A DNA stretch of 64,000 nucleotides, taken from sequence record PQ505080.1. One strand, written 5' to 3'. Positions 52,177-58,484 of this stretch are shown here, one piece after another (within the stretch, counting starts at the first letter, position 1; every line of letters begins with the position of its first letter). The translations under genes and the position numbers were made by a program. This DNA comes from Escherichia phage HMD-6. The notes under the pieces are model-generated. The model saw nothing but the letters and a program-made list of their open reading frames with translations. It ran no database searches and was not told where the DNA came from.

Positions 52177-53637
52177 TTATTTGGCGTACTCGATTAATTC
52201 TACAGTTTTCCCAAAGCTTGGGATATAATTTTTATTATACCCTTCGGTGAGAACCCATAAAGTATCGTACTTTTTCCACTTGTTGTCAACAACCTTTTGT
52301 TCAAAGTTATGCTCAAAATATAGATCGGTCAGGACGATGACATCTTTTGCATTTGGTATGTTAGCGTCCAGATACTCGAACACGCAAGCGGCTGTTGTAC
52401 CCCATGTTGAGTGGACCTCGTAGTTGATCATCTCGTCGATGTTCCCGCGAGTGTATACTTTAACCTCTCCAACCTCAGTTGACCAACAGAACATTGTAAC
52501 CTTGAACTCTTTATACAGATTGCACAACCCAGTGATCTCATTGAACATTTTCTTTAAAGTTCTTTGTGAGATCGACCCAGAAACGTCTAAAGCCACCACA
52601 ATATCTATAGTGTTTTCCGGATTACGACCAGGAACAACAACGTGCTGATTCTTTTTTATAGCCCCAACTTTTCGCATTGTGCTGGTCAAAGATCCAGATC
52701 GGCGACCGGGTTTTCTGTAGGTTAGTTCAGCCTTTCGTTTGGACAACATACGTTGCTTAATAATGTCTATATAATTGATTACAGGCTTACCTCTGTTCTT
52801 GACAAACTCACGCACCGCCTCTGGGCAACGACCTCCGGAAGCTTGCATTGCTGCTTCCAACATGTCACCAGAGTCCTGCATGGCTTGATCTTTATCAGAT
52901 TGACTGATCACTGGCTGTGGCTGATCATACCCCATAGCCTTTCCAAGATCATCACTAGTGCCACCGTTACCACTCATGTGATCATCGGTTTGTCGTTTAT
53001 CTCCTTGAGAGTTCTCGCCTTTACCGTTCTTACTTTTACCGCTATTCTGATCTCTTTGCTTATCAAGAACCGCATAGACGTTCTCAGCAATCCATCCATG
53101 GAACCTCATGTCACAGTAGCAACTAGCTAAGAAGCCAAAAGGCTTACCTTTTACGAACTCAGTGCTTTTCCCCTTCGGGAAGAAAACACAAGGAGGCTTG
53201 CTAAAGTCAACCACAAGACCTGTGTTGATAACGTGATCACAAGCAATATTGAACAGTTCCGGCTCAAAGCTTTTACCACGGACCAGATGATCACAGATAA
53301 TATGCCCCACCTCATGTGACAGAAGAAAGGCCACCTCTTTCACAGATTTTGGGGAATAGAAAACCTCAGCCATCTCAAACTGCTTGTCAGTCAGAGATGC
53401 TTTAAGAATGGTTTTACGCTCATCTGCCAACCCCATAATGAACTCAGGGCTGTAGTAGATGCGTTTATGGTCTGTTGCCATAGTGGAGCACCATGTGTGG
53501 TTTTCTACGAACTGCAACCCTGACAACAGTGTGCCATAAAACGGCAGCTTTTCAAGAAGATACATGCGTGCTGCCTGCAGCATTCGCAAGGCGTCATCTT
53601 TTTGTGTGGCAATGATTTCTGAACTTCTGCTATCCAT
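52177..53637 (-). CDS. HExxH metallopeptidase-like N-domain fused to a VWA-like C-domain
   Basis: LSHEVGHIICDH (HExxH) in the N-half; C-half has DxSGS MIDAS-like motif (IVVALDVSGSIS); start taken at ATG (MDSRSSE...) with GGAG 5 nt upstream. Confidence 0.6.
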   Translation of the reverse strand: MDSRSSEIIATQKDDALRMLQAARMYLLEKLPFYGTLLSGLQFVENHTWCSTMATDHKRIYYSPEFIMGLADERKTILKASLTDKQFEMAEVFYSPKSVKEVAFLLSHEVGHIICDHLVRGKSFEPELFNIACDHVINTGLVVDFSKPPCVFFPKGKSTEFVKGKPFGFLASCYCDMRFHGWIAENVYAVLDKQRDQNSGKSKNGKGENSQGDKRQTDDHMSGNGGTSDDLGKAMGYDQPQPVISQSDKDQAMQDSGDMLEAAMQASGGRCPEAVREFVKNRGKPVINYIDIIKQRMLSKRKAELTYRKPGRRSGSLTSTMRKVGAIKKNQHVVVPGRNPENTIDIVVALDVSGSISQRTLKKMFNEITGLCNLYKEFKVTMFCWSTEVGEVKVYTRGNIDEMINYEVHSTWGTTAACVFEYLDANIPNAKDVIVLTDLYFEHNFEQKVVDNKWKKYDTLWVLTEGYNKNYIPSFGKTVELIEYAK

Positions 53638-53670
53638 TAAAACTCCAGAAGGGGCCAATGGCCCCTGTCA

Positions 53671-54660
53671 TTATTTAACGTGCTTGAAAATACCAGCCAA
53701 CTCGGTCATTGTCATGCGAGTGGTCTTCATAAGGTCTGTCATAGCCTTTTCCATGATTGGAGATACTACCATAAAGTTACCCTTGGTGAAACCTTTATTC
53801 CAGTCGGTCACTAATAGTGGTTTAAGTCCGACCCCGAGACGCTCACCAGTTAAAGCACAACATTTTCGAATGTACGTGCTCTTAAATTGACTGAATGATA
53901 GATCAACTTTCATACCTGCATCGTAGAACGTCTGACAATAGAAAGTGTAAGCTTTGGCAATCTCAACATCGTCAGGCAGTGCAGGAACCTCTTCTGTGAG
54001 CTCTTCTTCGTCCCCTTGAGGCTCTTTTTCCTCTTCGTAAGCCTGTTGCGTCATCTCTTCAATCTCCTCTACTACAGGCTCGTTTACAATGTCAGAAATG
54101 TGCTTGTTGGCTCCACGGTTAGCCATGAAGTTTTTAAAATCCTGCATTGGTGACATATCTTCCTCCCATTCTTCGTCAAAGAGTGCCAGTTTATCCTCTT
54201 CCGTCCCATATTGCAAGATGAAATCTTCAAAAGTGTAATCACCTTTCAATTTCTCCATGCGCTCTTCGCTCAGGTGGAGCATCATCTGCTGGACAATTTT
54301 TCGATCAGTTTTGTCTTTAATCAAGATTGCGGTCTTTTTATCTACCAGGCAGTCTTTCAGAGAGTTACACCTCAATCCTACCACACAACAGTTATCAATT
54401 GCGTAAGGACCTTCATCATCTATCCGCTCCAGAGATGGGTAGAAAGGATTCCCCAGCCCGTTTTCATCTGTGTGCATGTCGAAAGGTATAAGGGTATAGT
54501 CGCATACCCCCTCTCCTAAAAGTTTTTTACCAAATAGGAGGTATTCTTCCCATGACAGGTTGAACTCTATATCTCGTTTCCGTGCATTATTTTGTTTGCG
54601 TCTGTATTTTTTGAGCAGGCGCTCTAACTCTTCTGGTGTATAATATTTTTCAAGATTCAT
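53671..54660 (-). CDS. hypothetical early protein with two Cys-containing HNH-like segments and an acidic linker
   Basis: Start at ATG 54660 (MNLEKYY...), consistent with the leftward promoter; GVCDYT ... SLERIDDEGPYAIDNCCVVGLRCNSLK and YIRKCCALTGERLG resemble degenerate HNH/zinc-finger motifs without the canonical His. Confidence 0.35.
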   Translation of the reverse strand: MNLEKYYTPEELERLLKKYRRKQNNARKRDIEFNLSWEEYLLFGKKLLGEGVCDYTLIPFDMHTDENGLGNPFYPSLERIDDEGPYAIDNCCVVGLRCNSLKDCLVDKKTAILIKDKTDRKIVQQMMLHLSEERMEKLKGDYTFEDFILQYGTEEDKLALFDEEWEEDMSPMQDFKNFMANRGANKHISDIVNEPVVEEIEEMTQQAYEEEKEPQGDEEELTEEVPALPDDVEIAKAYTFYCQTFYDAGMKVDLSFSQFKSTYIRKCCALTGERLGVGLKPLLVTDWNKGFTKGNFMVVSPIMEKAMTDLMKTTRMTMTELAGIFKHVK

Positions 54661-54691
54661 GAGTTGTCTCTTGTGCTCTGTAGGTGGAGAA

Positions 54692-56986: not shown

Positions 56987-57030
56987 TGGGCAGGGATGGC
57001 GGCAAGGATGCTGCTTAAGGAGTAGTAGAG

Positions 57031-57300
57031 ATGTTATACCAGCAGTACGAACTTCGTGCAGAAAAAGAATTAAATTTTGACAGAGATATTCACAGATATT
57101 ATTATGGGAAAGTTAGAGGTCAAGCAAGAAAGTGTACTCCAACACTCTTTTATGCCAGCAGACGACTAGCGCCAGAAGAGGCAACAGCAGAAAGGGTTGC
57201 ATATGGCTGGAGAGTTGCGTATGATATTGACAGATCCGATGTGATGTCTGTTTTGGAAAACTTTGAAAACACTTACACACAAGTAGAGGACTTTTACTAA
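57031..57300 (+). CDS. hypothetical protein
   Basis: 89 aa after RBS AAGGAG. Confidence 0.45.
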   Translation: MLYQQYELRAEKELNFDRDIHRYYYGKVRGQARKCTPTLFYASRRLAPEEATAERVAYGWRVAYDIDRSDVMSVLENFENTYTQVEDFY

Positions 57301-58484
57301 TGTCAAGAAACGTATTCGAAAGTGGTCAAATCACTGTCCGCGAGTTGCCAGCCATTATTCAATTTGCCCAGCGTCATAACCGATCTGTCCTGATTTTAGG
57401 ACCGATGGGTGTGGGGAAGAGCCAGGTGATGAAGCAGATTGCTGATAATATGTTCGGTGAGCGAGATGACAACCTGGTTGACGTGCGGCTGTCAGATAAA
57501 GATCCTGCTGACTTATCTGGACTGCCTATCCCTGTAGAGTCAGATGGAACTACACGCACAGTGTTTGCAATTCCAGAATTTTGGCCTGCAGATCCGAACT
57601 GGAGCGGAATTATCTTTCTGGATGAACTTACTCATGCAGATAACTACCTGCAGAAGGTTGCAATGCAAATTATGCTCGACAACAAGTGCGGCACCTATGC
57701 ATTTCCTAAGGGCTCTGTTTTTGTAGCTGCAGGTAACCGTGCTACAGATGGTGCTGTTCTTTCAGCGCTCGAAGCCCCTCTGGCTAACCGCTTTATCATT
57801 GTAGAAGTTACAAGCAGTGCAGAGGTATTTATTGAGGACTACGCATTCCTTAATGGTGTGCACTCCTCTGTAATTGGATATCTGAAAAGAGTTCCATCAG
57901 CTATCGATAATTATGAGGCTATGGCTGAGATTAATTGTCCATCTTTTGCCACACCGCGATCTTGGGTTGCTGCATCTGACATCTTGCACGATTTTGACAG
58001 CGGTATTATTTCTGACGCTATGGCTCGTGTTCTTCTGCAAGGCGCTATCGGTCACACTGCAGCGGTAGAAATCTGGACCTACCACACCAAGAAACGAAAC
58101 TTGCCAGAAATCGGTCGGATTATGGCAGGGGGTTGCAAAGAGTATGTAGGTCCTAAGCAGCCAGACATCTTGTGGATTCTGGGGTCTGAAGGGTGTATCG
58201 CTATTCGTAACATGATGGAAAATGCAAGTATCTCCGACGAAGATCTTGTCAGCTGTGTGGCAAACTTCCTTGATTTCCTTTGGGAAAATTTCAAGGATGA
58301 GAACCGAGACTTTGTATTCTCAGTCTTTATGGCGATGATGAAACCCAACGCCCTAGGAAATGCCTTACTTATTGGTAAAGGCCGGGACAAGATCGTTGCT
58401 CAGCTGATCAAAGCATACCCGAACCTGATGAAGATTGTAAAAGAGTTTGGTGAAGAGTTTAGCGCCATTTTAGCTAAAGCTTGA
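57300..58484 (+). CDS. MoxR-like AAA+ ATPase
   Basis: Walker A ILGPMGVGKSQ; Walker B IIFLDELTHA; AAGNRATDG and ANRF motifs typical of the MoxR/AAA_5 clade. Confidence 0.7.
   Translation: MSRNVFESGQITVRELPAIIQFAQRHNRSVLILGPMGVGKSQVMKQIADNMFGERDDNLVDVRLSDKDPADLSGLPIPVESDGTTRTVFAIPEFWPADPNWSGIIFLDELTHADNYLQKVAMQIMLDNKCGTYAFPKGSVFVAAGNRATDGAVLSALEAPLANRFIIVEVTSSAEVFIEDYAFLNGVHSSVIGYLKRVPSAIDNYEAMAEINCPSFATPRSWVAASDILHDFDSGIISDAMARVLLQGAIGHTAAVEIWTYHTKKRNLPEIGRIMAGGCKEYVGPKQPDILWILGSEGCIAIRNMMENASISDEDLVSCVANFLDFLWENFKDENRDFVFSVFMAMMKPNALGNALLIGKGRDKIVAQLIKAYPNLMKIVKEFGEEFSAILAKA

Follow-up and report, generated by a model that had tools for sequence, protein, structure and literature searches.

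A zincin-VWA protein and a MoxR-class ATPase in Escherichia phage HMD-6 as a rearranged gene pair of the N4 gp24/gp25 type

The two genes and their domains

The window analysed here is a stretch of 64,000 nucleotides from Escherichia phage HMD-6 (PQ505080.1), whose source group is Vequintavirus, the rV5/FV3-like coliphages. It carries two genes of interest, one for a protein that joins a zincin-type (HExxH) metallopeptidase domain to a von Willebrand factor A (VWA) domain with a metal ion-dependent adhesion site (MIDAS), the other for a putative AAA+ ATPase of the MoxR class. An earlier note on this DNA had described the two as distant partners, and both open reading frames (ORFs) were present at the coordinates given there:

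52177-53637, minus strand: predicted zincin (DUF2201_N, HEVGH)-linker-VWA (DUF2201, MIDAS) protein, 486 aa; orthologue of rV5 gp012, homologue of N4 gp25
57300-58484, plus strand: predicted MoxR-class AAA+ ATPase, 394 aa; orthologue of rV5 gp004, homologue of N4 gp24

The ORF listed for the zincin-VWA gene reaches further, to a TTG at 53658. Across the 6.6-kb stretch around both genes, more than 110 rV5/FV3-type Escherichia phages (genus Vequintavirus) showed 93-97% identity to the window. In their GenBank records the ATPase gene is named 'MoxR ATPase', 'MoxR-like ATPase' or 'ATPase', and the zincin-VWA gene 'VWA-like domain-containing protein', 'putative metallopeptidase' or 'metal-dependent peptidase'. 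The record of PVP-SE1 cross-references the rV5 genes (YP_002003506, 'MoxR ATPase', and rv5_gp012). Sixteen records named 'Campylobacter phage' (host C. jejuni; MG065658, MG065662, MG065672, MG065674, MG065677 and others) are ~94% identical to the E. coli vequintaviruses here, and by this similarity their C. jejuni host assignment looks doubtful.

The VWA protein with an N-terminal HExxH domain, as the note had read it, was recovered by Pfam, with PF13203 at 99.1 bits (cut-off 23.2) and PF09967 at 42.9 bits (cut-off 26.4), peptidase first and VWA second. The MIDAS motif (DxSxS ... T ... D) was complete in the VWA domain, and a fold search returned the VWA fold. In the family alignment, H108 and H112 of the zincin site were invariant and E109 and H117 were at least 90% conserved; D134, which lies on the next predicted helix after the HExxH helix, was also invariant. 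A weak Peptidase_M48 match (E 0.007) fell on the HExxH helix. The N-terminal peptidase-like domain is not peculiar to this phage: the same architecture is standard across the whole phage family, including N4 gp25 and the jumbo-phage homologues (PMC7824862).

An identity as an HNH endonuclease was considered for this gene and rejected. No HNH family was found among its Pfam and NCBIfam matches, and the sole basis of the name is the label of phrog_1314, the PHROG of the zincin-VWA protein, which also stands on the RefSeq orthologues in FV3, rV5 and PVP-SE1 (NC_019517, NC_011041, NC_016071). The name looks like a widespread, propagated annotation error. The NCBIfam search of the window proteins gave nothing usable.

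The ATPase comprises a AAA+ core and a helical C-terminal extension of ~120 aa, and matched phrog_1297 at 1e-109. The Pfam models used for the MoxR type were AAA_3 (PF07726), AAA_5 (PF07728) and bpMoxR (PF20030). Homologues at ~34% identity have precomputed matches to all three, some of them marked weak. A profile of the ATPase family found midasin as its best match in the PDB (3e-11), and a direct phmmer search of either window protein against PDB sequences returned P-loop-level matches (ClpB, ClpC) or nothing. An AlphaFold model of the ATPase (mean predicted local distance difference test score 85.3) had NorQ or the Rubisco activase CbbQ2 as its 13 best Foldseek matches in the PDB (E 1e-7 to 2e-6), and 2r44 was also matched. 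The model places a β-hairpin at residues 75-90 between β2 and β3, that is, a helix-2 insert, and a small pre-sensor-1 hairpin before β4. Residues invariant in 24 homologues down to 30% identity were G37, G39, K40 and S41 (Walker A), D108 and E109 (Walker B), N146/R147, R164 and R220. The catalytic set is complete, with Walker A, Walker B, sensor-1 Asn, arginine finger and sensor-2-like Arg. The 'MoxR-like' label of the earlier note was therefore not borne out by direct Pfam models, and it stood on the domains of homologues at ~34% identity, the midasin profile match and the NorQ/CbbQ fold. The protein is best placed in the MoxR class as a diverged member, by transitive and remote homology only.

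The ratio of non-synonymous to synonymous substitution rates (dN/dS), calculated against two relatives, was 0.063 and 0.029 for the ATPase gene; for the VWA gene the two values were 0.046 and 0.024. With dN/dS at 0.02-0.06, strong purifying selection acts on both genes. The two window genes are intact and retain all catalytic and MIDAS residues.

Gene order, co-occurrence and the origin of the split

The conservation of gene order across distant genomes was surveyed in 80 viral-contig loci with zincin-VWA relatives, together with loci reached through ATPase homologues and annotated genomes. Outside the clade in which the genes are split, the ATPase gene lay upstream of the VWA gene on the same strand in 74 of 74 loci with enough upstream flank. 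The gap between them was at most 700 bp in 69 of these and 970-1800 bp in the other five. Only three loci lacked the ATPase gene, each with less than 400 bp of contig upstream. Among 50,697 phage records, about 670-810 had the module; they include N4-like podoviruses, Vequintavirinae, several jumbo phages and many uncultured phages. The counts of ATPase and VWA proteins by genus matched closely (Escherichia 213/213, Pseudomonas 104/108, Pectobacterium 26/26, Cronobacter 17/17). Because of the conserved adjacency in relatives and the matching phyletic distributions, we regard the ATPase and the VWA protein as partners, as had been proposed from the window; these comparisons support a real, conserved partnership between the two genes. 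Both ORFs are best read as the Vequintavirus copies of a widespread two-gene phage module of the N4 gp24/gp25 type.

The split itself was also as described in the earlier note. The genes lie on opposite strands ~3.7 kb apart, with start codons separated by 3.66 kb, and flank a strand switch at ~54660-54803. Opposite-strand placement was observed in 16 loci, 3.6-5.2 kb apart, and the window lacks the adjacent, co-oriented order of the N4 type. These 16 loci belong to Vequintavirus, Seunavirus (PVP-SE1) and other relatives, and their VWA proteins are at least 39% identical to that of the window. The next group out, at 33-36% identity, keeps the genes adjacent with a gap of ~80 bp; it comprises Certrevirus (F4M1E), POP18-like phages and the contigs L007, L008 and L021-L023. 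Certrevirus, where the genes are adjacent, is the sister genus.

This distribution points to the split as the derived state. Four genes are shared between the window and contig L008, namely those for the VWA protein, the ATPase, a CwlJ-like hydrolase and a PIF1-like helicase. After L008 is flipped, the ATPase gene is the sole shared gene on a different arm, while the VWA, CwlJ-like and helicase genes keep theirs. The simplest history would be one rearrangement in the ancestor of the split clade, which carried the ATPase gene across the divergent control region. Either a translocation or an inversion that broke between the two genes could have done this. Small genes on the flanks of the pair were not homologous between split and adjacent genomes (window versus L008), and so both kinds of event fit the split.

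Physical separation might also have uncoupled the genes, so that the Vequintavirus ATPase and zincin-VWA protein now act independently or with other partners. The two are indeed separate transcription units 3.7 kb apart, and a second AAA/helicase-like ATPase is encoded nearby (62619-63989). Against this, all 16 of the 16 split loci keep both genes at 3.6-5.2 kb, neither gene occurs alone in the genus-level counts of this clade, and a Pfam scan of eight neighbouring proteins revealed no further VWA domain. The low dN/dS of both genes and the retention of every catalytic and MIDAS residue also argue against it, and we consider uncoupling the least probable of the explanations weighed here. Since the pairing persists despite physical separation, a strong functional link between the two proteins can be argued.

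In other phages the pair is accompanied by a 5'-3' exonuclease gene upstream and a thymidylate synthase gene downstream; downstream of the pair in the N4-like phage G7C lie genes for dCTP deaminase, thymidylate synthase and rIIA. The order in G7C is gp24 (ATPase), an inserted HNH gene and gp25 (VWA). Several uncultured loci show a gap of 1-1.8 kb at the position where G7C carries this HNH homing-endonuclease gene, gp24.1 (L090 4459-4935), and the junction between the ATPase and VWA genes may be a recurrent insertion site.

A scan of bacterial genomes with a single protein recovered only a locus in a Saccharofermentans metagenome-assembled genome (JAZRYF010000023.1). On this contig (L006/L091) an ATPase and DUF2201 pair lies at L006 6849-9239, 15 bp apart, flanked by genes for a SNF2-type helicase, a Ser/Thr kinase, a PP2C phosphatase, another VWA protein and a JAB peptidase. 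The locus could be a prophage or a conflict island.

The control region and the neighbouring genes

The strand switch between the two genes and the arms that leave it were examined for features that bear on when and how the genes are expressed. The following features were recorded:

54692-54762: putative divergent control region with back-to-back sigma-70-like promoters, from a consensus scan and the sequence
54720-54692, minus strand: leftward candidate promoter, TTGACA-17-TAAGAT, 10 of 12 consensus positions
54734-54762, plus strand: rightward candidate promoter, TTGACT-17-TATAGT, 10 of 12 consensus positions
53671-54660, minus strand: Srd-like gene, first of the leftward arm, directly upstream of the VWA gene; labelled 'anti-sigma factor' in relatives
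53650-53666: perfect GC-rich hairpin AGGGGCCattGGCCCCT (AGGGGCC att GGCCCCT), in the 33-bp gap from the Srd-like gene to the VWA start codon
54803-55702, plus strand: gene that opens the rightward arm; many relatives name it 'putative alpha 1-3 fucosyltransferase'
58888-58903, plus strand: terminator-like hairpin CCCCGCTTCGGCGGGG with a T-run, downstream of the ATPase gene and of an ORF of 126 aa
58924-59424, plus strand: CwlJ-like cell-wall hydrolase gene (Hydrolase_2), on the early-looking arm, directly upstream of the rIIA/rIIB homologues
59421-62619, plus strand: rIIA and rIIB homologues, the latter with a weak N-terminal SPOR-domain match
62619-63989: the second AAA/helicase-like ATPase, a nearby ORF
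47366-47387: strong 9-bp GC-rich hairpin with T-runs on both sides, where the rightward block (last ORF 1878 aa) meets the leftward arm

The candidate back-to-back promoters would drive the two arms that carry the genes, which lie 1-2.6 kb from the strand switch. The promoter hexamers are kept in YP-6 and BP9, where the spacer of the leftward promoter varies, and the PVP-SE1 record annotates a promoter at the equivalent site. A location of both genes in the early region, as the earlier note had described it, is plausible from this arrangement.

The Srd-like gene gave a strong match to phrog_3118 and weak matches to the Srd, sigma-70 decoy and endonuclease VII families. Within the split clade it keeps its place next to the VWA gene (L009, PVP-SE1), and the two are probably co-transcribed; it is treated here as context for the pair. 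The hairpin between them could act as an attenuator or as an RNA stability element for the VWA message. On the other arm, the hairpin at 58888-58903 may close the transcription unit of the ATPase gene. The gene at 54803-55702 had no Pfam or NCBIfam match, its PHROG (phrog_12338) is without a function label, and its fucosyltransferase name appears unsupported. The hairpin at 47366-47387 is probably a bidirectional terminator.

The position of the pair bears on a further explanation, in which it is a virion-assembly chaperone whose MoxR and VWA proteins fold or assemble structural proteins while the zincin trims them. Virion assembly was proposed by Iyer, Anantharaman, Krishnan, Burroughs and Aravind (2021, Viruses 13:63; PMC7824862) for the pair of a MoxR AAA+ protein and an N-terminal metallopeptidase-vWA protein, a 'chaperone-cochaperone' pair, in the group 2.2 jumbo phages. 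Their analogy was with Acidianus two-tailed virus (ATV), where p618 (MoxR) binds p892 (VWA) as well as virion and tail proteins (PMC4124505). The window protein has tblastn homologues in jumbo phages, among them Muenster, 7t3 and JP4 (E 1e-36 to 1e-42), which agrees with this proposal. However, neither window gene falls within the rightward block of large ORFs at 1-47 kb, the presumed structural module, which ends at a strong probable terminator. They lie instead among small ORFs beside the candidate divergent promoters, the Srd-like gene and rIIA/rIIB, and in N4-like and uncultured phages the pair sits amid nucleotide-metabolism and replication genes. The VWA partner of ATV is, moreover, without a peptidase domain. 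Virion assembly is a serious but unlikely explanation on this evidence. More probable, in our view, is a role inside the cell in the early or middle phase of infection, with a host protein or a non-structural phage protein as target, because the pair lies near sigma-70-like promoters, the Srd-like gene and rIIA/rIIB here and near nucleotide-metabolism, replication and rII genes elsewhere.

Related systems, proposed mechanism and significance

Pairs of a MoxR ATPase and a VWA protein have been described in several cellular and viral systems, and the window pair can be compared with each of them. The closest are the N4-like phages (Schitoviridae), where gp24 and gp25 of N4 have been listed as AAA and vWFA proteins without an assigned function since at least 2009 (PMC2784036, PMC6992544). 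The window ATPase is homologous to gp24 of N4 (tblastn 2e-20) and of G7C (BLASTP 4e-21), and the VWA protein to G7C gp25 (BLASTP 8e-18), with an 'N4 gp25-like protein' among its tblastn matches. N4 gp25 (vWFA, pfam13203) has the same domain architecture as the window protein, a zincin followed by a VWA domain with MIDAS. As here, the pair of the N4-like phages is non-structural and lies near rIIA/rIIB and nucleotide-metabolism genes (PMC2784036, PMC6992544). In the N4-like phages the two genes are neighbours in the same orientation, in some cases separated by an HNH gene, whereas those of the window stand on opposite arms. Compared with the N4-like proteins, the zincin-VWA protein of the Vequintavirinae has ~95 extra residues, which form a helical insert ahead of the HExxH helix and lengthen the Gly/Asn/Asp-rich linker; the ATPase has ~40 extra residues in its C-terminal region.

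The jumbo-phage pair shares the two-protein architecture of the window, and its homologues are ~27% identical (tblastn). Its description is confined to jumbo phages, with virion assembly as the assigned role, whereas the Vequintavirus copy is split, promoter-proximal and early-looking. The p618/p892 pair of ATV, in which the proteins bind each other and p892 stimulates the ATPase, is the sole viral MoxR-VWA pair with biochemical data (PMC4124505). It is without a peptidase domain, is virion-associated and serves extracellular tail growth in an archaeal virus.

The vWA-MoxR ternary (VMAP) conflict systems serve cellular defence and add a third, VMAP component and effector arrays; their vWA component is sometimes fused to a peptidase (Kaur et al. 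2020, eLife). The core of MoxR and vWA is common to these systems and the window pair, and no VMAP was found in the window. An identity as an anti-phage defence MoxR-vWA system was rejected: PADLOC gave no match for the VWA protein and a noise-level match for the ATPase (E at least 5e-4, P-loop region only), and VMAP was absent.

The NorQ-NorD and CbbQ-CbbO systems of the CbbQ/GvpN/NorQ group supply the best structural matches to the ATPase model. In their shared logic, a hexameric MoxR ring works with one VWA/MIDAS adaptor that recognises acidic residues of the client (PMC9976466, PMC4660213). There is one VWA protein per MoxR hexamer, and the MIDAS is required to engage the client's acidic residues but dispensable for ATPase binding (PMC9976466). 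The N-terminal domains of their VWA partners are non-catalytic, and the clients are cNOR and Rubisco, whereas the window partner has a putative zincin domain. NorQ and CbbQ are 16-20% identical to the phage ATPase, which has an extra helical C-terminal domain.

This resemblance raises the further explanation that the pair is a cofactor-insertion or maturation chaperone like NorQ-NorD, CoxD-CoxE or CobS-CobT, loading or exchanging a metal in a phage or host enzyme with HExxH as the metal-handling site. The nearest solved structures to the ATPase are NorQ-NorD complexes, NorQD places the non-heme iron in cNOR (PMC9976466), and the pair recurs beside genes for thymidylate synthase and dCTP deaminase. 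On the other side stands the site itself, with its nearly invariant HExxH glutamate and conserved D134 and H117, which is typical of a hydrolytic zincin. The HExxH glutamate is the general base of zincin peptidases. Pfam classes the N-terminal domain as a putative metallopeptidase, and no specific client enzyme is kept beside the pair across lineages. A cofactor-insertion role therefore appears highly improbable, if slightly less so than uncoupling.

The variable N-terminal domain of the VWA partner confers function or specificity in MoxR/VWA systems (PMC9976466). As this domain is a conserved putative zincin here, the most economical model would be a remodeller that is driven by ATP and carries a tethered protease. 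On the pattern of NorQ-NorD and CbbQ-CbbO, the ATPase would form a hexameric ring on which one copy of the partner would dock through its VWA domain. The MIDAS metal site would grip an acidic residue of the target protein, ATP hydrolysis would remodel the target, and the tethered zincin domain would then cut it. The 'chaperone or protease-like remodelling machine' of the earlier note is in this respect a reasonable reading, and says no more than has already been proposed. Our favoured explanation as a whole is a pair of the N4 gp24/gp25 type, in a derived split arrangement, that acts as an ATP-dependent, target-specific protease or remodeller; we give it a probability of about 0.65.

Several observations weigh against this explanation. 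The window ATPase scored below every Pfam AAA/MoxR gathering threshold, with AAA_5 at 17.7 bits (cut-off 22), bpMoxR at 15.6 (cut-off 27) and AAA_3 not listed. No solved zincin was found among the 50-60 matches listed in either full-length fold search of the VWA protein; all matches listed fell on the VWA domain, and the searches are therefore silent on the N-terminal fold, so that the zincin assignment draws on the Pfam model and motif conservation. The family member P0146 has HAxxH in place of HExxH, and catalysis is therefore not universal in the family. Promoter-like matches were not above those in shuffled sequence (34 versus 27 ± 5), and the suggested early timing draws on consensus promoters. 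For these proteins, the literature yielded no data on interaction, expression or activity from any phage, and the sole published proposal for this architecture is virion assembly (PMC7824862).

The literature was searched for earlier treatments of these genes. We found no paper that connects the Vequintavirus genes with one another or with N4 gp24/gp25, and none that remarks on the split. No functional study was found on DUF2201, the Vequintavirus MoxR protein or the von Willebrand proteins of N4-like phages, and no demonstrated function for the module in any phage. The CRISPRi-ART and transposon-mutagenesis phage screens mention neither these genes nor an rV5-like phage, and the genes are not mentioned in a proteomics paper on an O177 vequintavirus. 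The window pair is a further, rearranged example of a type of pair already described, and its components are already annotated in GenBank. Its novelty is accordingly low, because these GenBank labels exist and Iyer et al. (2021) described the jumbo-phage pair.

The results place one rearrangement inside the Vequintavirinae and expose the widespread 'HNH endonuclease' mis-annotation of the zincin-VWA gene. They also point to a tractable E. coli phage in which motor and adaptor are separate transcription units, which would allow easy independent knock-down, titration and complementation. A bolder form of the favoured explanation, which we hold to be doubtful and somewhat less probable than virion assembly, is that the module is a substrate-specific, ATP-driven protease aimed at a particular host complex, which it would destroy or remodel early in infection; examples would be an immune, stress-response, nucleoid or transcription component, and the MIDAS would select the target. 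If this were true, genes flanking back-to-back early promoters would set the ~6:1 ratio of motor to adaptor independently in the Vequintavirinae, and an unrecognised protease for host takeover or counter-defence would be common to more than 650 sequenced phages.

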